Shown here: one piece after another, positions 7,235 through 49,650 of the stretch
How the letters are laid out: the number at the start of each line of letters is the position of its first letter
How positions within the stretch are numbered: the first letter of the stretch is position 1
Assembly: GCA_902768365.1 (NCBI GenBank)
Contig: CACXKV010000002.1
Span: 53,978 to 117,977 of the forward strand
Direction of reading: 5' to 3'
From: an uncultured Bacteroidia bacterium
GTDB lineage: Bacteria > Bacteroidota > Bacteroidia > Bacteroidales > UBA932
DNA: 64,000 nucleotides
The notes under the pieces: generated by a model
Database searches by the model: none
The model's input: only the letters and a program-made list of their open reading frames with translations
Told to the model about the DNA's origin: nothing
Translations under genes and position numbers: made by a program

Positions 7235-8788
7235 CTAGTTAATGTTTTGCTTTATAACGAACTGACCACCGATACTTATCGGATTCACATAAAGAGACTG
7301 CGAGGAGGAAGGGTTGCTCGGGTCCACGGGTACGGTGCGGCACATAAAACGCAGTATAGCGTACTGGCTTGTGGAGGTATTCCCCTTTGCCTTGATCTCT
7401 ATTCTGGATTCGCTGCCAACCATTCCTTCAACCATTAAGCTATTATTACTGAACACTATAGAGCCATCTTCGCTACCCTGGATGGACTCCAGCATTGCAT
7501 ACCACGTCCCCTGGTATGGCGTGTCAAAAATGAAGCTGCCAACCAGGTTGGTTCCCGGCTTAAGGACAAGAACCTTGTAGGTCCCTTCAACGCCGTCGAT
7601 CGTGAACGTCGCTTCATTAGTGCAGTTCGATCCGGTACCCGCCTCAAATGTATCGGGATCCCAGGTCAGCTGCTTCGTGATGGTAACGCTCTCAGTGTAG
7701 TCACTAGTCCCCAACCAATACTCCCAAGGCTGAACCTGAACGCTGAGGTTGATAGCATCATTGGTGGCTATAGTGAAAGTGTATACATACTTTTTATTCT
7801 GCTGCCATTCATCTATGCCCGGCACACTGTCAAGCTCAATTTCAGCCTGCTTATTGATATTGAACGAGCCGTCTTTCTGGTTGTAATTGATGATTACGGT
7901 AACTTTTCCCGCTCCCGTACCATGATCCATATCCTGGGGTATCAATAAAACAGGATTGGTAGAGCAGGATTTGGCTGTAGCATACTCAAGTTCAACAGCG
8001 CCGGTGAAAGCGACAGCGGCATTTGCATTTTCCCTCTCATTGGAAAGGTCCTCCCAACTTGAATTACCCTGACGGAATACGCCGGAACTATAGTCTTTGA
8101 TTATTTTTACAGAAGTAACCTCAAGTGTCACATCGTCGTAATCCTCAAAGGTCTTTGCCTTGAACTCAATCCAGGAAAGACGGTGGTGGAATTCAAGACC
8201 GACGACTCCGTCCACGGGGTCGCAATTGGCATAGGTCTTATCGGTAACAAGAGCGGAAGTCATAAAATCATCTCGCCCAGTTGTGGCATTGAATTTTATG
8301 TCCGGAAGATCCTGCGATGTTTTGGTATAAGTATTTGTAGTATTCTTTTCGTAAAGAACAGCGGAAGCATTATATGGACTGTATGCCCAGAAAGAAATTG
8401 TATTCTCTTCATTTGATGGCCAATAACGGAGAGGACTGTATGTATAGGCGCCCCCATTCTTTTCCACCTGCTGATTGAACATGAAGTTGGGCTGGCGGGT
8501 GGCAGACCAATGAGCTACAGTGCCGTTTTCAACATCACCCTCCTGGAAGAAAGCGAAAACGCCAAAGGTGGAGCCATCTACAAGTTCGGTTGTAGCCTTG
8601 GTTTCAGAGACGGAAGAGCCGAATCTCAGCGGTTTGTCGCCGCAGAGGTCTGCCCAGTAGTCCTCTTCGTTGAAACGCGGGTGCTCCTTGGCGCAGCCAA
8701 TGGCCGCCAGCGCTATGAGAAGCATCGCGCCGGTTTCCTTTAACCGCCCCTTAAAGGAAGAAATGTATGTTGTGCGTTTTTGAAACAT
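7235..8788 (-). CDS. fimbrillin-family lipoprotein (minor pilin)
   Basis: Lipobox AIGC, ETKA, FGVFAF, YSPLRYWP, SFWAYSPY, FHHRLS fimbrillin motifs; start codon uncertain. Confidence 0.85.
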   Translation of the reverse strand: MFQKRTTYISSFKGRLKETGAMLLIALAAIGCAKEHPRFNEEDYWADLCGDKPLRFGSSVSETKATTELVDGSTFGVFAFFQEGDVENGTVAHWSATRQPNFMFNQQVEKNGGAYTYSPLRYWPSNEENTISFWAYSPYNASAVLYEKNTTNTYTKTSQDLPDIKFNATTGRDDFMTSALVTDKTYANCDPVDGVVGLEFHHRLSWIEFKAKTFEDYDDVTLEVTSVKIIKDYSSGVFRQGNSSWEDLSNERENANAAVAFTGAVELEYATAKSCSTNPVLLIPQDMDHGTGAGKVTVIINYNQKDGSFNINKQAEIELDSVPGIDEWQQNKKYVYTFTIATNDAINLSVQVQPWEYWLGTSDYTESVTITKQLTWDPDTFEAGTGSNCTNEATFTIDGVEGTYKVLVLKPGTNLVGSFIFDTPYQGTWYAMLESIQGSEDGSIVFSNNSLMVEGMVGSESRIEIKAKGNTSTSQYAILRFMCRTVPVDPSNPSSSQSLYVNPISIGGQFVIKQNIN

Positions 8789-37242: not shown

Positions 37243-40200
37243 ATGACAGAAAAGAAGTTCAAACTGTGGAACAGGATAGCCGCGGCTTTCGCTTTCGTGG
37301 TATCCGCGTTCACATACCTCAGCACCATAGAGCCCACCGCATCCTTCTGGGACTGCGGCGAGTTCATCGCATCTTCATATAAACTCGAAGTCGGGCATCC
37401 TCCGGGAAACCCCACCTTCCAGGTGCTCGCGCGCATTTTCACCCTCTTCGGGGACAATATGCACGCCGCGGTGCTGGTGAACGCCATGAGCGCACTGTGC
37501 TCGGCCCTTACCATCCTATTCCTCTACCTTACCATAGTCTGGTTCGCAAAGAGGATGACTAAACGGCTGTCTGTTGCCGTGATCGGCTCCGGCCTCGTGG
37601 GAGCCCTCGCCTACTGCTTCTCAGACACATTCTGGTTCTCCGCAGTCGAAGGCGAAGTCTACGCCATGAGCTCGCTCGTCACCGCCCTCGTCTTCTGGAT
37701 TATGACCCTCTGGTACGACAGGGCCGACGAGCCTCACGCCAACCGCTGGATCGTGCTGATAGCCTTCATCATGGGCCTCAGCATAGGCATCCATCTGCTT
37801 AACCTGCTCATGATCCCCGCCCTGGTGTTCATGTTCTACTACCGCCGGCGCGAAGACGGCCCCTTCACCGTCAAGGAGCTCTTCAAGATCCTTCTCATCG
37901 GCGGAGCCATCCTCGGGATCATGGTGTTCATGGTCATCCCCTGGCTGCCCAAGATAGCCGCATACGTGGATCTCTTCTTCGTGAACGTGCTCGGCCTGCC
38001 CTACAACAGCGGTGCCGCCTTCTTCCTGGTGGCGGTGCTGGGTCTCTGCTTCTGGGGCCTCTTCCGCACCCTGGACAAGGGAAAGGTGTTCTGGAACACC
38101 GCCCTGCTGTGCCTCACCACCATCATCGTGGGCTTCTCCATCTTCAGCGTGGATATCATCCGCTCCTGCGCCAAGACCCCTACGAACGAGTACCAGCCGG
38201 ACAATGCCTTCACTTTGGTGCGCTACCTCACCCGTGAGCAGTACGGCAGCACCCCGCTCGTCTACGGGCAGTACTACGACGCGCCCTTCCAGGTGAAGGA
38301 AAACAAGTACTGGACCCCTCTGGACGGCAAGTACAAGAAGGTGGACGGCCCCGGCGAGGCTAAGTACGATGCCTCCGGCAAGATGCTCTTCCCCCGCATG
38401 TGGAGCGGTGTGGATCCCCAGAGCAAGGATATTTACAAGATATACACCCGCGGCAAGGGAAAGAAGATCAAGGGGGCCTCATCGCCCAAGCCTAGCATGG
38501 GCGCGAACCTCGCCTACTTCTTCGACTTCCAGCTGGGATGGATGTACTGGCGCTACTTCATGTGGAACTTCGCAGGGCGCCAGAACGATGTGCACAGCCC
38601 CTCCCCGGGCAACATCTTCCACGGCAACTGGGAGAGCGGCATCAAGGTCCTGGACGACTGGAGGCTGGGAGACCAGAGCAATGCTCCCTCCGTGCTCGCC
38701 GACAATAAAGGCAAGAACCACTACTATCTCCTCCCCTTCCTCCTGGGCCTGATAGGGCTTTTCTTCCAGTTCGGGAAGGATAAGCGTGGATGCTGGCTGA
38801 ACTTCTTGATGTTCTTCATGACCGGCATAGCGGTGGTTATCTACCTCAACATGCCCCCGTTCCAGGTGCGCGAGAGGGATTATGCCTTCGCGGGATCCTT
38901 CTACTTCTTTACCGTGTGGATAGGCCTCGGCGTGCTCGGCCTCTACGACCTCGTGGACGAGACCCTCAACAGGAAATTCAGCACTTCGCTGGGCGCTTTC
39001 CTCACCGCGGTCTGCCTCTGCGTGCCCGCACTGATGGCAGCCGAGAACTGGGACGACCACGACCGTTCCGGCCGCCGTACCGCACCCGAACTCGGAGCCA
39101 ACTACCTCAAGTCCGTCGGCCCCCAGGGCGTGCTCGTGACCCATGGCGACAACGACACCTTCCCTCTCTGGTATGCCCAGGAGGTGGAGAATGTGCGCAC
39201 AGACGTGCGCATCGCCAACACATCGCTTCTCGGCACCGACTGGCACATAGACCAGATGAAGTGGGCCTGCAACGAGAGCAAGCCCCTGCCTCTGACGGTG
39301 GGCCCGGAGCAGTATCTCTACGGCACCAACGAATACATCCCCATCTACGATCAGCGCGGCCGCGTGATGAGTATCGCAGATGTGATGACCCTCTTCAAGC
39401 ACCCTCAGGTGAAGGTGCAGATGAGTTCCGGCCGCAGGTACGATTACATCGCTTCCCGCAAGATATCGGTTCCCGTGAACAAGGAGAACGCTCTGGCGAG
39501 CGGGATAGTGCCTCCGGCGATGGCCGGCCGCATAGCAGATACCATAGTCCTGGAGATTCCTGCCAACAAAGACTACCTCACCAAGCCCGAGCTCTTCGTG
39601 CTGGACTTCCTTTCCAACTATCAGTGGGACAGGCCCTTCAACGTGCTCAGTAACGGTGGAGACATTAATATAGGCATCAAGGACTATCTGATGAGCGACG
39701 GCTTCTCGGCCAAGCTGGTGCCGTTCAAGAACCGGCCTTCCTCCAGTTCCTTCGGACTGGTGGATCCGGACGAGCTCTGGCACTACATGACCGAAGTCTA
39801 CTCTTTCGATGCCCTGAAGGCTCCGGGCTGGTTCGTGGACTACCAGAACTGCTATACTTTCCTGGCAGTGATGGGAATACGCAGCCTGCACGTGAACTGC
39901 GCCAGTTCCTTCCTGGGATGCGGCCAGCCTGAGCGTGCCCTGGCGATGCTGGACCAGAGCGAGGCTGCCATGGTCAACTTCCCCGTCTGCTCCATCCCTC
40001 TTGGATTCAGCGGCAACGACTACATGGTGGTGAAGACCGTGGATCTGTACTATAAACTGGGGCATGGCGAGAAGGGTCGCGAGCTGGCCGTGAAGTATGC
40101 CGACGAGGTGCTTGCCGCCGCCGCTTTCTATCTTCAGTTCTATGCCTTTGCCGAGGATGAATTCGAGCTCTGCGGCAACTATATCTACTATCTGTCCGAC

Positions 40201-40287
40201 GTGCTGGAGCAGGGTGGAGAGAAGGAGCTTGGAAAGCAGATAGAGAAGAGATTCTCGGATTTGGTTGAATCCGCAACCGCCAAGTAA
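37243..40287 (+). CDS. DUF2723 (TMEM260-like GT-C glycosyltransferase) membrane protein
   Basis: SFWDCGEFI, VGHPPG, AVEGEVYA, RERDYA, GDNDTFPLWY. Confidence 0.9.
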   Translation: MTEKKFKLWNRIAAAFAFVVSAFTYLSTIEPTASFWDCGEFIASSYKLEVGHPPGNPTFQVLARIFTLFGDNMHAAVLVNAMSALCSALTILFLYLTIVWFAKRMTKRLSVAVIGSGLVGALAYCFSDTFWFSAVEGEVYAMSSLVTALVFWIMTLWYDRADEPHANRWIVLIAFIMGLSIGIHLLNLLMIPALVFMFYYRRREDGPFTVKELFKILLIGGAILGIMVFMVIPWLPKIAAYVDLFFVNVLGLPYNSGAAFFLVAVLGLCFWGLFRTLDKGKVFWNTALLCLTTIIVGFSIFSVDIIRSCAKTPTNEYQPDNAFTLVRYLTREQYGSTPLVYGQYYDAPFQVKENKYWTPLDGKYKKVDGPGEAKYDASGKMLFPRMWSGVDPQSKDIYKIYTRGKGKKIKGASSPKPSMGANLAYFFDFQLGWMYWRYFMWNFAGRQNDVHSPSPGNIFHGNWESGIKVLDDWRLGDQSNAPSVLADNKGKNHYYLLPFLLGLIGLFFQFGKDKRGCWLNFLMFFMTGIAVVIYLNMPPFQVRERDYAFAGSFYFFTVWIGLGVLGLYDLVDETLNRKFSTSLGAFLTAVCLCVPALMAAENWDDHDRSGRRTAPELGANYLKSVGPQGVLVTHGDNDTFPLWYAQEVENVRTDVRIANTSLLGTDWHIDQMKWACNESKPLPLTVGPEQYLYGTNEYIPIYDQRGRVMSIADVMTLFKHPQVKVQMSSGRRYDYIASRKISVPVNKENALASGIVPPAMAGRIADTIVLEIPANKDYLTKPELFVLDFLSNYQWDRPFNVLSNGGDINIGIKDYLMSDGFSAKLVPFKNRPSSSSFGLVDPDELWHYMTEVYSFDALKAPGWFVDYQNCYTFLAVMGIRSLHVNCASSFLGCGQPERALAMLDQSEAAMVNFPVCSIPLGFSGNDYMVVKTVDLYYKLGHGEKGRELAVKYADEVLAAAAFYLQFYAFAEDEFELCGNYIYYLSDVLEQGGEKELGKQIEKRFSDLVESATAK

Positions 40288-41132
40288 TGAGACTGATACG
40301 GAATTTGGCTCTGCTGCTGGCCGGGATGCTTGTCCTGGCCGGCTGCAAGGGTAGCGCACCCCTGATTGGCATTTCCTGCGGATGGGACGGTGGGCGCATC
40401 GACGTGAGTGATGCCTATGCCTTATCCGTTCGTGCCGCCGGCGGGATTCCGGTAGTGCTGCCTCCGGTGCTTTCTATGGAGGAGGCCGCTTCTGTTCTGG
40501 GCAAAGTGGATGCACTGATTCTCACCGGGGGTGAGGATGTGGATCCGGCCCGCTATGGCGAGGCGGTGCTGAATGCCACGGTCGAGGTGAACGGCGCGCG
40601 GGACACTTCAGATTTCTATCTGGCAACCGAGGCACTGCGCATGGGATTGCCGATTCTCGGCATCTGCCGCGGCGGGCAGCTGATGAACGTGGTGCTGGGA
40701 GGGTCGCTTTATCAGGATTTGCCGACTTGCATCGGCAGCGAGGCAGATGGCGGCAGTAGTGCCGTTCACGGAAGTTTTTTGAGTGAGCCCGTGCGTGGCG
40801 GTAGCGGAGTGAACGGCACCACTGCCGCCATCGCCCACCGGCAAAGCGAGCCGGACGGAGTGGGAACACATATGATCTACATTGAAGCCGGCTCGCGGCT
40901 CCATGAAATCCTGGGCGCCGACTCGCTGATGGTCAACTCCTTCCATCACCAGGCGGTCAAAGACCCCGGGGCCGGCGTGCGTGTAGTCGCCCGCGCGGCC
41001 GACGGAGTGGTCGAAGCCTGGGAATACGACAGCATCCTCTGCGTCCAGTTCCACCCCGAACTCCTCTACGCCCGCGGCGGCAACTCCACCTTCCTTCCTA
41101 TCTTCGAAGACCTCGTTGCTCGCGCACGGTAG
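40287..41132 (+). CDS. gamma-glutamyl-GABA hydrolase / peptidase C26 family, lipoprotein signal
   Basis: LTGGEDVDP, GICRG.Q, VNSFHHQAV, VQFHPE; lipobox LAGC. Confidence 0.9.
   Translation: MRLIRNLALLLAGMLVLAGCKGSAPLIGISCGWDGGRIDVSDAYALSVRAAGGIPVVLPPVLSMEEAASVLGKVDALILTGGEDVDPARYGEAVLNATVEVNGARDTSDFYLATEALRMGLPILGICRGGQLMNVVLGGSLYQDLPTCIGSEADGGSSAVHGSFLSEPVRGGSGVNGTTAAIAHRQSEPDGVGTHMIYIEAGSRLHEILGADSLMVNSFHHQAVKDPGAGVRVVARAADGVVEAWEYDSILCVQFHPELLYARGGNSTFLPIFEDLVARAR
40746..40832. repeat. palindromic element family A (87 bp, in-frame in C26 gene)
   Basis: 24-bp arms GATGGCGGCAGTAGTGCCGTTCAC / GTGAACGGCACCACTGCCGCCATC around the family A loop. Confidence 0.9.
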
Positions 41133-41142
41133 TCCCTATTTA

Positions 41143-41335
41143 TCCACTGGCGGCGGCGCAATGCTCAAGGCCATCGAAGGCAAGGACCTCCCCGACATCT
41201 CCGCGGTTCGCGACTAAACGTTTTAATCGTTTAACCAGAAAACGGCAATACAGCGCAATAAATGGTAAAAAACCGCCAAAACAGGGCGGTTTTTTACCAA
41301 AATATGCCATTTCAAGGCGGTTAGTGGTAACGAAT
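41143..41335 (+). repeat. 193-bp inverted repeat arm (copy of pgk 3' end plus downstream hairpin)
   Basis: About 90% identical (about 20 mismatches by eye) to the reverse complement of 43534-43726; translates [24 protein letters not shown]. Confidence 0.95.
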
Positions 41336-41338
41336 CGT

Positions 41339-42202
41339 TCAAGCCAGCACCGATTCCAATAATCCAATCTTAACATCCAAGACCCTGGCCAACTGTTTGA
41401 TCCCGGCACCGCGTGAACTCTTGAGTTTCTGCGCCAAAGCAATCCTCCTCGCCAGATCCATATTTGCAATCGTCACATCTTCCTCCTTCCTGGCCATCCG
41501 CCTCGCAACCACCCTCAGCTCATCGTCCGACAGGGCTTCGAAATTCGCCCGTGCACAGCTCTTATTCAAATCCAGAATCCGGTCCTTCTTCATATACATA
41601 AACGCAATATATGCTTTGATGCCTCCGAATATTTTCATAGCATCCTGCCACGCAACATAATGCTTTGCCAAAATCGCCCCGTCTTCGGAATACGTCCATA
41701 GCCCGGGCACTTCATAATGCATTCCCAAAGTGGCAACTCTGGACCTGCGGGACAATTTTCCTACCACGCCTATTCCAAAAGACTCCGGTGCAAAAAAGAG
41801 CGACGCTGAACTCCATTTGTAGAACCTGGGATCAAACTTAAATCCGGCTTCTATAGGATTACGATGTACATAGGCAATCACACTCATTACATCTTCCTTG
41901 CTCTCCAGCAAATCTGCAGATACGGCCACCTTTCGAATCTCATATGGCCTTTCGCGTACCCTATTGATTCGATGGAGTATCAGTTTCATCAGCTGCATAC
42001 CAAATTGCCGGCATTCATCCTCTGTTCCGTATAAAACAAGATGGAAATGCGAATTCATAAAAACAAACGCGATAATGCTACAAGCCAGTAATTGACTGCA
42101 ATAGGCCAGCAGGTTGATGGCCATTACAAACTCTTTGTCCGAAATCAAAAGTTTCGGAGTGTCTTCTCCAAACGAATAGACATGATAATATCCCTTATTC
42201 AT
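41339..42202 (-). CDS. HUH/Y1 transposase-like nuclease (RAYT-like) 2
   Basis: GYYHVY, AFVFMNSHFH (HUH), AYVHRNP, YKWSS, C-terminal HTH-like GIKQLARVL; AT-rich. Confidence 0.88.
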   Translation of the reverse strand: MNKGYYHVYSFGEDTPKLLISDKEFVMAINLLAYCSQLLACSIIAFVFMNSHFHLVLYGTEDECRQFGMQLMKLILHRINRVRERPYEIRKVAVSADLLESKEDVMSVIAYVHRNPIEAGFKFDPRFYKWSSASLFFAPESFGIGVVGKLSRRSRVATLGMHYEVPGLWTYSEDGAILAKHYVAWQDAMKIFGGIKAYIAFMYMKKDRILDLNKSCARANFEALSDDELRVVARRMARKEEDVTIANMDLARRIALAQKLKSSRGAGIKQLARVLDVKIGLLESVLA

Positions 42203-42414
42203 ATACTTAATGGCTATTGACCAGGCGGCTAATATGGGACTAAACATCGGAGCCAGCAAATAATCACGTCAAACATTTGCTTTAATATATGTTTCTGCTG
42301 ATGATTGCGTGTTTTAACACCACCATAAGAAAAATCTTATGCTTTGCCTAAACTTAAATCATATATGTTTCCATAGTGTGTTTTTTCTTATCTTTGTTGA
42401 CAAATGGCTGGATT

Positions 42415-43530
42415 ATGGTAGAATTTCCGGATAATAATTGGAAAGATTACGAGCTGCTGGATAGCGGCTGCGGCGAGAAACTTGAGAGGTTCGGCTCTGT
42501 CGTGACCGTCCGTCCTGAGCCTAAAGCGCTGTGGGACAGGAGTATGCCGGAAACGGAATGGCGGCGTCTCGCGCATTTTTCCTTCAAGCTGGCCAGCACC
42601 CAGAATGCCGGCCGCGATGCCGGAAAGGGCGGGAAGAATGCCGGTTCCGGAGCCATCGAGGACCGCGGCACCTGGGAGCGCCACAAGAAGGCGGATGACC
42701 AGTGGTATATACGCTACGCCAGCGCAACGGCCGGAACCAGCGCCGCGGTCGGGGCAGGCGCTGCCACCGGCCAACCCGACGGCCCGCAGTTCCGCCTGCG
42801 CCTGGGCCTCACCGCCTTCAAGCACGTAGGAGTCTTCCCCGAGCAAGCCCCGAACTGGGAGTTTATCTACCGGCAGGTGAAGAGGATAACAAAAGACACT
42901 CGGCCAAAGGTCCTTAATCTATTTGCATACACCGGGGGTGCATCGCTTGCAGCCAAGGCGGCCGGCGCAGACGTCACCCATCTCGACAGTATCAAGCAGG
43001 TGGTTACCTGGGCACGCGGGAATATGGAAGCCAGCGGCCTGGACGGCATACGCTGGATTGTGGAGGATGCGATGAAGTTTGTGCAGCGCGAGGAACGCCG
43101 CGGCAACCTCTATGACGGCATAATCCTGGATCCGCCAGCCTATGGGCACGGCCCGAATGGGGAGAAATGGAAGCTGGACGATAGCCTATTTGGCCTGCTC
43201 AGGAGCGTTTCACACATTCTTAAGCCGCAGAATTCCTTTATGGTGCTGAACCTCTATTCGAACGGCTATTCCGCCGCCTTGGGAGAAACTCTGGTGCGCG
43301 AAGCCTTCGGTTTGGGGACTAACGGACGGGCAATGCCCGTACTGTCGGCCCCTTGCGGGACAGCTTCCGGGGCCCCCGAAAAACTGCCGTTTTTGGGGGT
43401 GGACAGACGGGCCTCCCTGCCCGTCGCGGACGGACTTGGCGCGGACGGCCTGACGAGCGGCGAACTGGCCTTGAACGACCGTTTCGGCAAAGTCTTGCCT
43501 TTAAGTATTTACGTCCGGCTGGAACGATGA
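42415..43530 (+). CDS. class I SAM-dependent methyltransferase (RlmI/YwbD-like)
   Basis: DYELLDSG..EKLERFG, FKHVGVFPEQA, LNLFAYTGG, IILDPPAY. Confidence 0.9.
   Translation: MVEFPDNNWKDYELLDSGCGEKLERFGSVVTVRPEPKALWDRSMPETEWRRLAHFSFKLASTQNAGRDAGKGGKNAGSGAIEDRGTWERHKKADDQWYIRYASATAGTSAAVGAGAATGQPDGPQFRLRLGLTAFKHVGVFPEQAPNWEFIYRQVKRITKDTRPKVLNLFAYTGGASLAAKAAGADVTHLDSIKQVVTWARGNMEASGLDGIRWIVEDAMKFVQREERRGNLYDGIILDPPAYGHGPNGEKWKLDDSLFGLLRSVSHILKPQNSFMVLNLYSNGYSAALGETLVREAFGLGTNGRAMPVLSAPCGTASGAPEKLPFLGVDRRASLPVADGLGADGLTSGELALNDRFGKVLPLSIYVRLER
43323..43430. repeat. palindromic element family B with nested hairpin (in-frame in methyltransferase)
   Basis: CGGACGGGCAATGCCCGTACTG..CCCCTTGCGGGAC[~42 bp]AGACGGGCC..TGCCCGTCGCGGA. 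Confidence 0.88.
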
Positions 43531-43533
43531 TTT

Positions 43534-43726
43534 ATTCGTTACCACTAACCGGCTTGAAACGGCATATTATGGGAAAAAACCACCCAAATAGGGCGGTTTT
43601 TTACCATTTCTTGCGCTGTATTGCCGTTTTCTGGTTAAACGATTAAAACGTTTAGTCGCGGATAGCTGCGATGCCGGGGAGGTCTTTGCCTTCGATGGCC
43701 TCGAGCATTGCGCCGCCGCCGGTGGA
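43534..43726 (-). repeat. 193-bp inverted repeat arm (native pgk 3' end plus hairpin)
   Basis: Partner of 41143-41335. Confidence 0.95.
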
Positions 43727-44902
43727 AACGTAGCTGACCTTATCGGCATAACCCATCTTGGTAACGGCTGCAACGGAGTCGCCGCCGCCCACGAGGGTGT
43801 AAGCGCCATTAGCGGTGGCCTCTGCAAGATATTCTGCTATCTGCAGGGTTCCCTTTGCGAAGGTATCCATCTCGAACACACCCACGGGGCCGTTCCAGAG
43901 GATGGTCTTGGAACCAAGGATGATATCTTTCCAGACCTTGAGCGAAGCGGCGCCGGCATCCATACCTTCCCATCCTTCAGGGATCTCCATGGAAGGAACG
44001 GTCTTGTGTGCGGCATCGTTGCTGAATTCCTGGGCAACCACGGTCTCCACAGAAAAGGAGAGGTTCACGCCGAGTTCCTTGGCGCGGGCCATGATGTCGA
44101 GAGCCTGAGGGATGAGGTCGTCCTCATGCAGGGAGTTGCCTATGGATCCACCCATCGCCTTGATGAAGGTGTATCCCATTCCGCCGCCGATGATGAGGTT
44201 ATCTACCTTGGGGAGAAGGTTCTCCAGAACTGCGAGCTTGGAGGAAACCTTGCTGCCGCCGATGATGGCTGTGAAGGGGCGCTTGGCGTTCTTGAGCACG
44301 TTGTCGATGGCCTTGATCTCGCCTTCCATCAGGTAACCGAACATCTTGTCGTTGGGGAAGTACTCGGCGATCAGGGCGGTGGAGGCATGTGCGCGGTGTG
44401 CGGTGCCGAATGCATCGTTGATGTAGCAGTCTGCGTAGGATGCGAGCTTCTTGGTGAACTCCTTCTGGGAAGCCTTCACGGCCTTCTTGGCCTCGGCTTT
44501 CTCCTCGTCGGTGGCATCCTCTGCGAGCCCGCGGGGTTTGCCTTCTTCCTCGGCGTAGAAGCGGAGGTTTTCGAGAAGCAGGGCCTCGCCCGGTTTGAGG
44601 GCAGCAGCCTGCGCGTCGGCGGTCTGGCAGTCATCTGCAAACTGCACGGGAACTCCGAGGCATTCGCTCACATGGGCGACGATGTGCTTGAGGGAGAACT
44701 TTGGGTCAACCTTCTTGGGGCGTCCGAGGTGGCTCATGATAATCAGCGAGCCGCCGCCGGCGAGCACCTTTTTAAGAGTAGGGATTGCGCGACGGATGCG
44801 GGTGTCGTCGGTAATCTCGAAGTTTTCGTTAAGGGGAACATTGAAATCAACGCGGACAATAGCTTTTTTGCCGGTGAAATCATAAGAATCAATGTGTTGC
44901 AT
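43652..44902 (-). CDS. pgk: phosphoglycerate kinase
   Basis: [48 protein letters not shown]. Confidence 0.98.
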
Positions 44903-44976
44903 AATATTTTGTTGTGTCGAATTTTCCGGACGCAAAGTTAGCAAAAATATGGCAAATCCTTATTAACTTTGCGAGT

Positions 44977-45528
44977 ATGAGAACGCATATTATCGCATTA
45001 ATTGCATTAGTCTGCACGCTTGCCTCCTGCGGCAAGAAACAGGAAGATCCGGTGAAAGCGGCTATTTCCAATAAGATTTCAGAACAGATAGGGGAAACAA
45101 GCAACATTTATTTCAGCTCTTTGGCCCTGGTGGATTCCACCACTTTCGGCGAAGAGATCGCCCGCCGACGCACCACTCTGGAAATCAGGCGTAAGCAGAA
45201 CCTGAAACTGGCCGGCCAGTACGAGGCGGCCGGGAAGGTAAAGAACGAAGCCGCCAAGAGGTCCGATGCCGCCAACGACCTCAAGCGCCTCGAAGGCCTT
45301 TCCGCCATCGAATCCCGCCTCGCCGCCAACGACTCCCTCGACGTGGTGGAAGCCTATATCTACAAGTTCTCTGGCAGCGCCCGCACCTACAAAGGCACCG
45401 TCAACTTCACCGACATGTTCGTAGCCATCACTCCCCAACACGAGGTGGTGGGGATGGATTATAAAAAGGAAGGCGCCCTGAAATCTGCAGGCCGCCTTAT
45501 CCCCGGTTACTCAACCCTCTTCGAATAG
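44977..45528 (+). CDS. hypothetical lipoprotein
   Basis: MRTHIIALIALVCTLASC lipobox; TAACTTTG promoter-like element just upstream. Confidence 0.75.
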   Translation: MRTHIIALIALVCTLASCGKKQEDPVKAAISNKISEQIGETSNIYFSSLALVDSTTFGEEIARRRTTLEIRRKQNLKLAGQYEAAGKVKNEAAKRSDAANDLKRLEGLSAIESRLAANDSLDVVEAYIYKFSGSARTYKGTVNFTDMFVAITPQHEVVGMDYKKEGALKSAGRLIPGYSTLFE

Positions 45529-46902
45529 GGCTGGAGCGGCGGAGGCACCCACTACCCGAACCGGCCGGCCGGCTGTGCGCACCAGCTTGGAAAGGTCATC
45601 CGCCTCAACATTCTCCAAGCGGACCACCGTAGTATCGTAAACCATCCCCTCCGTATCCAGCGCATGCAGCATGCGGATCTCGCTGCTGCCGATGCGCGAG
45701 TCGCGCAGGATGATACTGTCCACCGGCGTGCGGCTCTGGATGAGCGCGGGAATCTCGTTCAGCACCTGCACCCTCTCGAACACGATGTTGCTCTGCACGG
45801 GTATCTCCGCGTAAGGGTAGAAGCTGCGCGAGTACTGGTCGTGGTCGAAGTGCAGGCAGAGGGCCACCTTGCGCTTCTCCTCCAGCCGGATGTCCCGGAA
45901 GACCACGTTGCGCACGCCGCAGCTGTGGCAGATGTTCCGGTCCTGGCTCATGGTCCAGGTGATGCCGTCGGGGTACGTCACGGTGCCTTCGGTGTGCTCC
46001 GGGCGGCAGGTCGAGACGTAATTCACCTTCACCTTGGGGCCGTTGGAACGGTAGATGCGCCCACCGCACACAACCGCATCTCCCGAAGACTGGATGTCCA
46101 TCCCGGATTCCCAGTCACGCCAGCCGCCTGCCAGGATGCGGGCGAAAAAGCCGGTAGTGCCGTTGGCGGGGTCATCCAGGTCGACGCAGTCCTCGATGAG
46201 GCCGTTCTCTATCCAGCCGAGTTCCGGGTTGGAGGTGGTGTAGTCGTGGGCATTGAGGGCGATGGGATCGTCGTAGGTCTTGAAAACGCCATGCCTCACC
46301 ACAAAATCGCGCCCGGGCCCGAAGTGAACGGCGTCCTTAAGTCCCTCTATATGAACATTTTCCACCACTACGTTCTCGAAGGTGCAGATCTGGATGGCGA
46401 AGTCGTTCGGGGGCAGATCCAGGAAGGTGTAGCCATCCAGCACAAGGTTCCGCACATAGAAGAACCCCGTGTGGCAGCACATGCCCACGATCGTGGGGAT
46501 GTCTACCGGCCTGCCCTTGCCTGCATCAATGCCGTTGGCCTTCAGCTGAAGGCCGCGTATGCAGATGTTTTCGTCATACTCCCGGGTGAGGGCGCCGCGG
46601 TTCAGGAGGATGAATCGAGCCGCCACCCCCTCGGAATCCTCGGCACGGCTCAGAACGGCGCCCGGGACGAATTCGAGGTCGGTATCCGAATCCAGGTAGA
46701 TGGTGCGGCAGAGTTTGTACTCGCCCGGTTTACGCACCTTGATGCGCCCGCCGCCGTCCAGGCAGCGCTGGAAGGCCTCTGAGTTGGTTATTGCGTCATT
46801 CTCGGGAAGGAAGCCGAAGCTATCGGCGTACTTGGTGCGGGTGCAGGATGACAGGATGGCCATCAAAGTCGCTACAGCAATTATTATATAGAATCGTTTC
46901 AT
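45511..46902 (-). CDS. parallel beta-helix (pectin-lyase-like) lipoprotein
   Basis: Lipobox LSSC, NSEAFQRCLD, KDAVHFGPG..TYDDPIALN. Confidence 0.7.
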   Translation of the reverse strand: MKRFYIIIAVATLMAILSSCTRTKYADSFGFLPENDAITNSEAFQRCLDGGGRIKVRKPGEYKLCRTIYLDSDTDLEFVPGAVLSRAEDSEGVAARFILLNRGALTREYDENICIRGLQLKANGIDAGKGRPVDIPTIVGMCCHTGFFYVRNLVLDGYTFLDLPPNDFAIQICTFENVVVENVHIEGLKDAVHFGPGRDFVVRHGVFKTYDDPIALNAHDYTTSNPELGWIENGLIEDCVDLDDPANGTTGFFARILAGGWRDWESGMDIQSSGDAVVCGGRIYRSNGPKVKVNYVSTCRPEHTEGTVTYPDGITWTMSQDRNICHSCGVRNVVFRDIRLEEKRKVALCLHFDHDQYSRSFYPYAEIPVQSNIVFERVQVLNEIPALIQSRTPVDSIILRDSRIGSSEIRMLHALDTEGMVYDTTVVRLENVEADDLSKLVRTAGRPVRVVGASAAPALFEEG

Positions 46903-46906
46903 ATTA

Positions 46907-48058
46907 TCAGACTTCGCATTCCATTTCTATGAGCCAGCCGGGGCGGCAGACGCGGGCTTCGAGGATGATGCGGGGCGTGTCGGGGAAGCGGGATTGCATG
47001 TAGGCGTCCACCCGGGCATAATCGGAAATATCCCGCAGGTACACCACCCAGTACGGCACCCCGGCCGGGACGGTTTGCCATCCGCGAAAAGCAAAGGGCC
47101 CGTCCGTGTCCCGCAAGGGGAGCCCGGTACGGGCATTGCTTTTCCGCGTAATGCCTACGCACCCGTCCTGGCCGGATTCGGCGAGCAGGGCGGCGATGTT
47201 TTCCAACAGGCGGTCCGCCTGGGCGATCACATCTCCCTCGTGGAGGATGTGCCCGAGATGGTCGATGCTGGCTGTGCCGCTGATGTAGATGTGATCGGCA
47301 GAAGGACCCGCTACCTTGACCCCACGCTCAAACGCAACGCCATAATCGTGCGTCGGACTCAAATGCGAGAGGGCCTTGAGATAGGTCTTGTCTTCTTCGC
47401 GGATGCCTGGCTGAGTAAGGAAATCTATCGCCACCACGGCAGACCTGCATTCGTTGGCCCCGCCGATGCCTGTGCTGGCAATGTAGTGAGTATCAAAGCT
47501 TAAGCCCTCTTCGGCAAACACATCGTTACGCGCCTTCACCAGGCCGGCGTAGTTGGAATCGATGTCACGCACGTATATCCAGGTGCGGACGCAGTGGGTC
47601 TTGAGTTCAAGGCCCAGGGGCCTGATGATACCCAGATACTTATCGAACAGGAGCCGGCTCTGCTCATAGCTGGTCTTGCCGGCGGCTTCCTCTTCGGTCA
47701 GGCGCAGGCTGTGGAACAAATATTGGTCTGCTTCGGAAGATGTGCGCACGAGTGCAGCGATGCGGTTGCCATCCAGCGGCGGCTGTTCGACTATAGAAAC
47801 GCTGTCCCCTCCGCGACGGGCAAAGGGCCCGTCTGTGACCCACAAGGGGCCGCCAGTACGGGCATTGCCCGTCCGTAAGGCCTCCCGCAGTGCGACGGCC
47901 TGGTTCTGCGCATCGCTGAGGAAGAATCGCACATACACCGGACTGCGCCCGGCCACCTTTTCCGCGGCCAGGAACTCCCCCATCTGCCTGACAACACTCT
48001 CCGACGCCCCGGCAAAATCACCCGCCGCCTCCGGCTTAATAATCTTGTAATTATCCAT
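46907..48058 (-). CDS. Rid/YjgF-fold, chorismatase (FkbO/Hyg5)-like protein
   Basis: RTWIYV, ASTGIG, VAFERG, ISGTASID, VCRPGWLIEME. Confidence 0.75.
   Translation of the reverse strand: MDNYKIIKPEAAGDFAGASESVVRQMGEFLAAEKVAGRSPVYVRFFLSDAQNQAVALREALRTGNARTGGPLWVTDGPFARRGGDSVSIVEQPPLDGNRIAALVRTSSEADQYLFHSLRLTEEEAAGKTSYEQSRLLFDKYLGIIRPLGLELKTHCVRTWIYVRDIDSNYAGLVKARNDVFAEEGLSFDTHYIASTGIGGANECRSAVVAIDFLTQPGIREEDKTYLKALSHLSPTHDYGVAFERGVKVAGPSADHIYISGTASIDHLGHILHEGDVIAQADRLLENIAALLAESGQDGCVGITRKSNARTGLPLRDTDGPFAFRGWQTVPAGVPYWVVYLRDISDYARVDAYMQSRFPDTPRIILEARVCRPGWLIEMECEV
47081..47146. repeat. palindromic element family B (66 bp, in-frame)
   Basis: GAAAAGCAAAGGGCCCGT..ACGGGCATTGCTTTTC. Confidence 0.9.
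47810..47875. repeat. palindromic element family B (66 bp, in-frame)
   Basis: GACGGGCAAAGGGCCCGT..ACGGGCATTGCCCGTC. Confidence 0.9.
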
Positions 48059-48113
48059 TTCTACAAAGATACACAAATCCCCAAACTCTGTCAATCCTCA
48101 ATAATTATGAAAT

Positions 48114-48225
48114 GCCGTGGGTGGCTATATGCTTAGCTATCAATGATTTACCAAAAACAGGTCGGTTAAATTTGCCGACCTGTTTTCGATAAAGTATTAT
48201 AAATCAATATGTTAACTACAACGGC
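48114..48225. repeat. cruciform element / terminator
   Basis: GCCGT..ACGGC outer stem, AAAACAGGTCGG..CCGACCTGTTTT inner stem, two ..ATCA-N5-TTA boxes. Confidence 0.75.
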
Positions 48226-48246
48226 GCCCCGAGCGCACCCTTATGC

Positions 48247-49650
48247 CTATTTACTCCGCAGATACTCGTCGATAGCGGCAGCGGCTTTGCGGCCGGCGCC
48301 CATAGCGAGGATCACGGTAGCGGCACCGGTGACGGCATCACCGCCGGCAAACACGCCGGGACGGGTGGTGGCGCCGGCCTCATCGGCCACAAGGCAGCCA
48401 CGCTTGGTAACGTCGATACCGGGGGTAGTGCGGGCGATCAGCGGGTTGGGCGAGGTGCCCAGAGCCATAATCACGGTCTCGGTAGGAATCTCGAATTCGG
48501 AACCGGGAACCACCACAGGGCTGCGGCGGCCGCTTTCGTCGGGCTCGCCGAGCTCCATGCGCACGCACTTCAGAGCGCGCACCCAGCCCTTCTCATCTCC
48601 CAGGATCTCCACGGGATTGGTGAGCATCTGGAAGTCAATACCTTCTTCCTTGGCGTGGTGCACTTCCTCCTTACGGGCGGGAAGTTCCACCTCGGTGCGG
48701 CGATATACTATGGTAGTATCAGCGCCCAGGCGCAGGGCCGTACGGGCGGCATCCATCGCGACGTTTCCGCCACCGACCACGCAGACCTTGCTGCCGGCAT
48801 GGATGGGGGTGCGATAATCGTCGCGGAAGGCCTTCATCAGGTTGTTGCGGGTGAGGAACTCGTTGGCAGAGAAGACTCCGTTGAGATTCTCTCCGGGGAT
48901 GCCCATGAACTTGGGAAGACCAGCTCCTGTGCCCACGAACACGGCTTCGAAGCCCTCCTGATCCATCAGGGTGTCGATGGTCACGGTGCGGCCGATGATT
49001 ACGTCGGTCTCGATCTTCACACCGGCGGCTATCACATCCTGAAGCTCGCGTTTGAGCACCTTCTCCTTGGGGAGACGGAACTCGGGAATGCCATACTCCA
49101 GCACACCGCCCGCCTTGTGCAGGGCCTCGAAGATGGTTACGTCGTAGCCCATCTTGGCCAGGTCGTACGAGCATGCGAGGCCGGCAGGGCCGGAGCCGAT
49201 AATGGCAACCTTGCGCTTGCAGGCGGGAGGGGCCGTCAGGCCGGCTTGAGAAGCGGATGCCTCAGCCGACTGTGCAAACGTCCAGTCTGCTACAAACCTC
49301 TCCAACTTGCCGATAGAAACCGGCTCGAACTTGACGCCGAGAACGCAGCTACCCTCGCACTGGGTCTCCTGGGGGCACACACGGCCGCAAACTGCAGGAA
49401 GCGAAGAATCTTCCGCAATCTTGGCGGCAGCACCGGCAAAATCTCCGGCAGCCACAAGCTCGATAAAATCGGGAATCTTCACGCCCACAGGGCAGGCCTG
49501 TACGCAGCGGGGATTCTTGCAATGCAGGCAGCGGGAAGCCTCCAGCATCGCCTCTTCTTTGTTATAGCCATAGCACACCTCTTCGAAGTTGTGTGCACGC
49601 ACTTTGGGATCCTGCTCACGCACAGGAACACGGGGAATTCTATTTGCCAT
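48247..49650 (-). CDS. NfnB / glutamate synthase small-subunit-like oxidoreductase
   Basis: EASRCLHC..C..CP, CGRVCPQETQCE, GSGPAG, YGIPEFRLPK, GGGNVAMD. Confidence 0.9.
   Translation of the reverse strand: MANRIPRVPVREQDPKVRAHNFEEVCYGYNKEEAMLEASRCLHCKNPRCVQACPVGVKIPDFIELVAAGDFAGAAAKIAEDSSLPAVCGRVCPQETQCEGSCVLGVKFEPVSIGKLERFVADWTFAQSAEASASQAGLTAPPACKRKVAIIGSGPAGLACSYDLAKMGYDVTIFEALHKAGGVLEYGIPEFRLPKEKVLKRELQDVIAAGVKIETDVIIGRTVTIDTLMDQEGFEAVFVGTGAGLPKFMGIPGENLNGVFSANEFLTRNNLMKAFRDDYRTPIHAGSKVCVVGGGNVAMDAARTALRLGADTTIVYRRTEVELPARKEEVHHAKEEGIDFQMLTNPVEILGDEKGWVRALKCVRMELGEPDESGRRSPVVVPGSEFEIPTETVIMALGTSPNPLIARTTPGIDVTKRGCLVADEAGATTRPGVFAGGDAVTGAATVILAMGAGRKAAAAIDEYLRSK

Follow-up and report, generated by a model that had tools for sequence, protein, structure and literature searches.

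A RAYT-like nuclease gene and a methyltransferase gene between inverted palindromic repeats, with an apparent relic of the pgk 3′ end, in an uncultured Bacteroidales bacterium

Introduction

The closest described systems to the locus reported here are REPtrons and TIRtrons. A REPtron is a RAYT (TnpA-REP) gene flanked by inverted repetitive extragenic palindromic (REP) or REPIN sequences (Nunvar 2010; PMC3116915; Ton-Hoang 2012; PMC6006769). TIRtrons consist of RAYT-like genes (TIRYTs) with long, partly self-complementary terminal inverted repeats (TIRs) that are unrelated to GTAG REPs (Di Nocera et al. 2013, PMC3733652); TIRYTs fall mostly into subclass 2.1 and have C-terminal helix-turn-helix (HTH) or DnaA_C-like domains (Quentin 2018, PMC6006769). 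Here we describe a locus in a 64,000-nucleotide stretch of DNA from an uncultured Bacteroidales bacterium (the window, contig CACXKV010000002.1), in which genes for a RAYT-like Y1-HUH nuclease and a methyltransferase are enclosed by two inverted arms. The non-coding part of each arm is an imperfect palindrome of about 106 nt, which we call T, and the outer part is either the genuine 3′ end of pgk (right arm) or an orphan copy of it (left arm). We consider it probable that this segment is a unit of the REPtron/TIRtron type that carries, in addition, a decaying relic of the pgk tail left by an old local inversion.

The locus resembles REPtrons in the HUH and tyrosine motifs of its enzyme, in a predicted fold nearest to that of 4ER8, and in having a single-copy ortholog at a conserved chromosomal place in related lineages. 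The flanking inverted palindrome is likewise long, imperfect and REPIN-sized, and its family is dispersed in at least one relative. Unlike REPtrons, the locus has no GTAG (or CGTC) tag on T, of which the genome holds three copies; its protein, 287 aa long, bears an extra helical domain at the C-terminus and falls short of the cut-off of the curated RAYT model; and it places a methyltransferase passenger inside the repeats and a piece of a housekeeping gene in one arm. Classic REP families number tens to hundreds of copies.

With TIRtrons the locus shares a longer RAYT-like protein, whose predicted model has a helical C-terminal domain that may be HTH-like, and long inverted repeats, partly self-complementary and without relation to GTAG REPs (200 nt here, 72-114 nt in related lineages). 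Small or absent repeat families and several paralogues per genome, each with repeats of its own, are further points in common. In contrast to TIRtrons, the locus lacks the GGGGWSAS motif of many TIRs, belongs to the Bacteroidota and encloses two genes.

Results

The preliminary description of this DNA reported a 193-bp inverted copy of about 90% identity with a perfect core of about 50 bp. A repeat search found this structure slightly longer, with arms of 200 nt (41136-41335 and 43534-43733) that are 89% complementary and lie 2198 nt apart, and with a core, the longest perfect run, of exactly 50 nt (41209-41258). The target of the genome searches was the whole 1.97-Mb assembly (G000, 88% complete), against which the arm pair has a BLAST E value of 4.5e-70 and is therefore not a product of chance. 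There are 23 mismatches in the 200 nt, 12 of them in the 82-nt part derived from pgk and 11 in the 118-nt non-coding part. The core takes in the stop codon, the spacer and the outer portion of T; upstream of it, the two longest perfect runs measure 18 and 16 nt. The genuine pgk 3′ end forms the right arm. The left arm, read on the + strand, consists of the last 24-26 pgk codons and the stop (ending at 41217), followed by a 12-nt spacer and the hairpin; the claim that 24 codons, stop and hairpin were copied without a frameshift thus stands for this genome. The inner arm ends are 3 nt from the stops of both enclosed genes, which are divergently transcribed. The features of the locus are as follows.

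37243-40287, + strand: TMEM260-like gene, to the left of the glutamine amidotransferase (GATase) gene
40287-41132, + strand: GATase/Peptidase C26 gene (Pfam PF07722, E=1e-53), the left neighbour
41136-41217, + strand: orphan pgk tail, about 26 codons and stop, an apparent pseudogene fragment; outer part of the left arm
41218-41335, unstranded: left spacer (12 nt, ACGTTTTAATCG) and palindromic T element of about 106 nt (about 41230-41335), abutting the nuclease gene stop
41339-42202, - strand: Y1-HUH (RAYT/TIRYT-like) nuclease gene, 287 aa, ATG at 42202 (NCBIfam REP_Tyr_transpos, E=4.6e-8; AlphaFold2/Foldseek)
42257-42370, unstranded: repeated element of about 114 nt in the divergent intergenic region (BLAST)
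42415-43530, + strand: S-adenosylmethionine (SAM)-dependent methyltransferase gene, group I paralogue (Pfam PF10672), with its stop 3 nt before the right arm
43334-43417, unstranded: GC-rich palindromic in-frame insertion of 84 nt inside the methyltransferase gene, present or absent according to strain
43534-43651, unstranded: right T element (about 43534-43639) and spacer, lying between the stops of the methyltransferase gene and pgk
43652-44905, - strand: intact pgk (Pfam PGK, E=1e-145), whose last 26 codons (43652-43733) are the outer right arm

In what follows, L-numbers denote contigs, G-numbers genomes, X-numbers sequencing runs and C-numbers contigs of G000. The central hairpin of the left T (41263-41299) has a 15-bp stem; folded as DNA, the left T reaches -27.5 kcal/mol (z=-6.1), and the z-scores of the arms are -5 to -6. 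T resembles an intrinsic terminator, and there is a terminator-like site on the minus strand at the left copy. Further copies of the hairpin, for which the preliminary description had advised searching, do exist: a third copy in this genome, 70% identical, directly follows the stop of another gene (C3:13770-13885), and in G089 the element forms a dispersed family of about 11 loci. Inverted copies of T also flank the methyltransferase-nuclease module in L034 (108 nt, 93%), in L036/L037 (72 nt, 81%, the arms containing no pgk coding sequence) and in G089 (114 nt, 85%). Across these three lineages and ours, the copies have one architecture, with an outer stem, an inner stem of A/T runs and conserved flanks. 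A search for the core pattern of the T hairpin gave no match in 18 same-genus relatives or in 12 of the same order, all of which are without an ortholog of the nuclease, and no GTAG stands beside the T stems. A known RNA family was considered for the hairpin and rejected; the Rfam search of 39000-46000 gave, within the arms and cassette, only a sub-threshold partial hairpin match to IS128 RNA. The loop of the left hairpin (41278-41283) is flipped between this genome and three metagenomes (AAAACA versus CTGTTT) with the stems unchanged, which is a small, stem-mediated loop inversion.

The enclosed genes were correctly named at the outset as encoding a RAYT-like nuclease and a methyltransferase, the evidence being the HUH and Tyr motifs and a predicted fold nearest to 4ER8 for the former and Pfam PF10672 for the latter. 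The nuclease has its HUH at residues 52-54 and its catalytic Tyr at residue 111, in the motifs SHFH and YVHRNP, and H52, H54, Y111 and N115 are invariant across 18 homologues. The protein matches NCBIfam REP_Tyr_transpos (NF047646) with 33.1 bits (E=4.6e-8; cut-off 80). It has no Pfam match, PF01797 (Y1_Tnp) matching only three distant homologues. The best Foldseek match of its AlphaFold2 model (pLDDT 83) is 4ER8_A, the E. coli TnpA-REP bound to a REP hairpin (E=3e-4, probability 1.00, TM 0.63 on the target), followed by the IS200, IS608 and ISDra2 transposases. The model has an extra helical C-terminal domain (helices at 226-286), and one distant homologue, that one only, matches Pfam HTH_23 (E=0.005). 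The enzyme is a RAYT-like Y1-HUH protein, and it is probably resident and domesticated. Metagenomic contigs carry orthologues with 57-99% aa identity, as do 4 of the 400 species of the genus that were sampled. Traits of IS200/IS605 elements are absent, in that there are no near-identical copies and no tnpB gene is present.

A hidden Markov model built from the homologue alignment identifies ten Y1-HUH genes in the genome, none of which matches the DNA of the cassette nuclease beyond short upstream or repeat stretches. Five paralogues were found by tblastn, at most 30% identical to the cassette nuclease, and their surroundings were checked. Three of these five (C9, C7b and C4) are each bounded by unrelated inverted repeats of their own, with different passenger genes between them. 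Beside C9 and C7a there are REP-like repeats that carry GTAG. The paralogue loci are C9:56088-59368, C7:16236-18725, C4:71305-73291 and C7:110200-111300 (G000), and the passengers are a ComF-like phosphoribosyltransferase, a C45-type hydrolase-like protein and a lipoprotein. The AT-rich element of about 114 nt between the nuclease and methyltransferase genes (42257-42370) recurs by BLAST at four loci with 78-84% identity (C9:59143-59255, C7:33978-34048, C7:105085-105198 and C6:54819-54911 of G000), at two of them just upstream of Y1-HUH paralogues. It has no Rfam match, and it may be a shared promoter, an operator or a small RNA.

Methyltransferase paralogues form two groups. In five lineages a group I gene adjoins the nuclease gene. 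Group II shows 54-65% identity to ours and is the ancestral methyltransferase gene, divergent from pgk. We rejected the idea that the enclosed gene is the ancestral neighbour of pgk; it is a distinct group I paralogue tied to the nuclease gene, and L036 carries both groups. No inverted repeats flank the methyltransferase gene in the ten outgroup relatives that were examined. Contigs of X2 and X14 skip exactly 84 nt in this gene (joint 43333->43418). The skipped stretch comprises 28 codons and is GC-rich and palindromic, with related short hairpin units at about 7-12 other places in the genome, and it looks like a small mobile palindrome tolerated within coding sequence.

The orphan pgk tail looks like a decaying relic. 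It differs from Pgk by four amino acids; three of the changes (E->K, G->D and A->S) affect residues that are invariant in the Pgk of 16 relatives. In the conspecific L024 it has a 1-nt deletion, which shifts the frame, and a 30-nt insertion; in runs X2, X7 and X14 it is 3 nt shorter; and in L034 and G089 it is degenerate and barely recognisable. The intact Pgk is 99% identical in amino acid sequence to that of L024 and 81-87% identical to that of 12 same-genus relatives having the complete gene. All four differences lie upstream of the perfect core. Because there is none within or downstream of the core, a likely crossover would leave Pgk unchanged. A reading of the orphan as a translated extension of the GATase was rejected, as it is in another frame and follows the GATase stop (41130-41132, 4 nt ahead of the left arm).

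The source of the orphan is suggested by L036/L037, where the module has the opposite orientation with respect to pgk. There the nuclease gene adjoins T, the spacer and the real pgk stop tail-to-tail, and the methyltransferase gene is directed away. Positions 2353-2643 of L037 (nuclease 3′ end, T, spacer and pgk tail) are colinear with 41405-41143 of the window. In addition, our genome, L024, L038 and G089 retain the motif of pgk stop and spacer (ACTAAACGTTT..AAACGTTT) on the 3′ side of the nuclease gene. From this colinearity, the adjacency in L036/L037 and the retained motif, we infer that the orphan was the original neighbour of the nuclease gene. The T arms have the same polarity in both module orientations. 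Another origin, an inverted duplication of pgk and the methyltransferase gene later split by the nuclease gene, was rejected because the orphan and the nuclease gene are on opposite sides of T. Between L036 and L037 themselves, the methyltransferase-nuclease-pgk DNA is 98% identical and diverges totally right after the pgk start, where one contig has the ancestral methyltransferase gene and the other has 185-aa/Fer4_20/Rnf genes; this divergence is either a strain-level rearrangement or a chimeric assembly.

A comparison of synteny with relatives lacking the nuclease gene, also advised in the preliminary description, gives an ancestral order that has neither the cassette nor inverted repeats. 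In at least nine same-genus relatives, the TMEM260-like gene is followed by a methyltransferase gene, the group II paralogue, on the opposite strand and then by pgk and two genes on the TMEM260-like strand, and the relatives with this order have no nuclease gene and no inverted repeat there. In our genome the two genes that are ancestrally downstream of pgk are 43 kb to the left. A single inversion as an explanation of the difference from the genus-wide order was rejected, since at least two or three events are needed. G014 departs from the majority order, and the region to the right of pgk (45049-48100) is shuffled between conspecific strains. The locus is a hotspot of rearrangement.

The cassette itself is also variable within what is evidently one species. 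The flanks of L024/L025 are conspecific with ours (94-98% nt identity, with the TMEM260-like protein and Pgk at 99% aa), whereas the nuclease is only 61% identical and the cassette DNA about 73%. High identity stops at the orphan stop (41217) and at the pgk stop (43652), and L024/L025 have an extra MORN gene and just a simple terminator after pgk. Divergent cassette alleles therefore either segregate in one species or were imported into it.

With respect to orientation, the nuclease 3′ end faces the GATase gene or the TMEM260-like gene in our genome, in the P0006-type contigs that reach that side (L024-L031), and in L034, L038, G089, G290 and G375. Only L036/L037 show the other orientation, and that relative to pgk. 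The segment has therefore flipped at least once during evolution. In Logan contigs from four runs of four studies, all contigs break inside the perfect core (41229-41238 and 43631-43640), which leaves the orientation unphased, and no strand-changing joint is reported. The presence of a perfect core within arms that are otherwise 88% identical suggests that the arms still exchange sequence.

Discussion

The reading that we favour is one in which two inverted, REPIN-like copies of T form the ends of a unit made up of a probably domesticated RAYT-like nuclease gene and the methyltransferase gene linked to it, and in which T would double as a terminator hairpin for the convergent gene pairs GATase/nuclease and methyltransferase/pgk. 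At the start, the nuclease gene would have stood tail-to-tail with pgk, separated from it by T and the 12-nt spacer only, as in L036/L037. A later local inversion of the module would then have duplicated T, the spacer and the pgk tail and left pgk intact. The inversion may have proceeded through staggered breaks, through template switching at the hairpin, or through T-T recombination with a conversion tract reaching into the flank. Afterwards, the orphan would have decayed, while the T parts may have been kept alike by constraint or by gene conversion from arm to arm.

Inversions through staggered breaks leave inverted duplications, according to a model established in Drosophila (Ranz et al. 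2007, PMC1885836). The present locus resembles such duplications in that a breakpoint stretch (pgk tail, spacer and T) is found at both ends of the segment in inverted order, with the gene at the breakpoint intact. It differs in that the model comes from Drosophila and is applied here by inference, and T-T recombination with gene conversion would look alike.

Several points weigh against this reading. Passive decay alone does not account for a perfect core of 50 nt in arms that elsewhere show a difference of about 12%. The nuclease falls below curated thresholds (33 bits against 80 for NCBIfam, and no Pfam Y1_Tnp match). T, with only three copies here and no GTAG tag, is not a typical proliferating REP, and its strict co-occurrence with the nuclease gene could be simple linkage; that the nuclease acts on T is a prediction. 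The reconstruction needs more than one rearrangement from the outgroup order (TMEM260-like gene, opposite-strand methyltransferase gene, pgk, gene A), the left neighbour in L037 differs from the GATase gene, and the direction of change, from an L037-like arrangement to one like ours, is read from colinearity only. The exact path of rearrangement is accordingly presented as a reconstruction.

The best surviving alternative is one of the two options in the preliminary description, namely that the nuclease copied the hairpin on the pgk side, together with 82 nt of upstream flank, to its own 3′ end through imprecise, one-ended mobilisation. Part of this proposal has held up well: the enzyme is RAYT-like, and the hairpin belongs to a real repeat family that flanks the module and is dispersed in G089. 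Moreover, copies of T lie directly at the stops of unrelated genes (pgk and the gene at C3:13885), suggesting targeted insertion, and the 50-nt perfect core includes stop and spacer as well as the outer portion of T. The part that fares less well is the copied flank, which is better understood as a relic of the nuclease-T-pgk adjacency of L036/L037: the left arm is colinear with that junction, so that the pgk tail would be an original neighbour rather than a new insertion, and the dispersed T copies of G089 lack both the spacer and the pgk tail. We also know of no case of flank transduction by RAYTs, which counts further against the proposal. As it was formulated, we regard it as unlikely.

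A second alternative is that the arms are purely the scar of rearrangement. In this case T would be no more than a strong terminator working in both directions, one of several inversions at a fragile locus would have doubled it along with the pgk tail, and the nuclease gene would be a bystander. Repeated rearrangement in the genus (the order in G014, the 43 kb between pgk and its ancestral downstream genes and the shuffling to the right of pgk) and the resemblance of T to an intrinsic terminator are consistent with such a scar. The scar would not account for T on both sides of the module even where pgk is not duplicated (L036/L037, L034 and G089), for the dispersal of T at about 11 loci in G089, or for the same layout, with unrelated repeats, at three of the five paralogues found by tblastn. 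We judge this explanation to be distinctly improbable.

An idea that we hold at a similarly low level of belief, and put forward as speculation, is that the cassette is an active recombination module, in which the nuclease would nick the T hairpins at the pgk terminator, homogenise the arms, occasionally flip the cassette and promote its replacement by divergent alleles. Homogenisation of the arms would explain the 50-nt perfect core, and replacement would explain why the nuclease is 61% identical when the flanking proteins are 99% identical, as well as the breaks at both copies of the pgk stop. If true, a domesticated HUH enzyme would be driving 'cassette exchange' at this place in the chromosome.

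Least probable of all, to a degree that we give it very little credence, is the remaining option of the preliminary description, an actively invertible 2.2-kb segment whose phase variation would exchange the C-terminus of Pgk or the setting in which the enclosed genes are expressed: a 200-nt repeat with a 50-nt perfect core suffices for occasional RecA-dependent inversion, the module of L036/L037 is opposite relative to pgk with the polarity of the T arms unchanged, and strains also differ in the orientation of the hairpin loop in the left arm, but the Pfam lists for neighbouring genes in the window and in the L024/L025 contigs contain no serine or tyrosine recombinase domain, the nuclease 3′ end points to the GATase or TMEM260-like side in all contigs long enough to include those genes, and the claimed alternative C-terminus of an intact Pgk finds no support, given the changes of the orphan at invariant residues, its frameshift in L024, its loss of 3 nt in three runs and the position of all differences upstream of the likely crossover. 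The segment does share with Bacteroidales invertons and shufflons its inverted-repeat boundaries and its gut Bacteroidales setting; unlike them, it has no recombinase gene, its repeats are ten times the typical inverton length, and among the contigs compared no lineage showed it in a second orientation. The locus does not point to a new route of Pgk diversification.

On the reading that we favour, of a REPtron/TIRtron-type unit with a pgk relic, the locus would add to the picture of these elements an example from Bacteroidales of the rumen and gut, and a variant with a methyltransferase passenger and the relic of a housekeeping gene tail. The palindromic ends would have come to act as the terminators of housekeeping genes, and the decaying pgk tail would record how one inversion took place, so that such elements would be seen to reshape the 3′ flanks of core genes. 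As a local hotspot of rearrangement and of allele replacement between conspecific strains, the locus could be used for asking whether domesticated HUH nucleases drive local recombination.

Additional observations

The GATase gene is an accessory gene that occurs together with the cassette. Of 18 same-genus relatives, 16 lack a match to it at E<=1e-20, and it adjoins the nuclease gene in L024-L029, L038, G089 and G290. Its coding sequence holds a palindrome with a 24-nt stem (40746-40832), which may be another intragenic palindromic insertion, and contigs of several runs have indels or a replacement near 40673-40932. The comparison of 40700-48300 with L024/L025 gives 96% identity for pgk and, in some conspecific strains, 80-88% for the 3′ part of the GATase gene; the genes to the right of pgk (184 aa, 463 aa and Rid/chorismatase-like) are 73-88% identical and are inverted or reordered.

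Genes for DUF4271 and DUF4886 proteins are among the neighbours at the locus, and the runs holding matching contigs include bovine and sheep gut samples; both point to a Bacteroidales bacterium that probably lives in the rumen. Finally, in G385 a 164-nt inverted repeat of 97% identity (7712-7875 and 11381-11544 of L047, which is G385:C20) surrounds a 41%-identical nuclease gene, pgk and a group II methyltransferase gene. This repeat contains repeated TTGCAA boxes, and the contig ends within its second arm.

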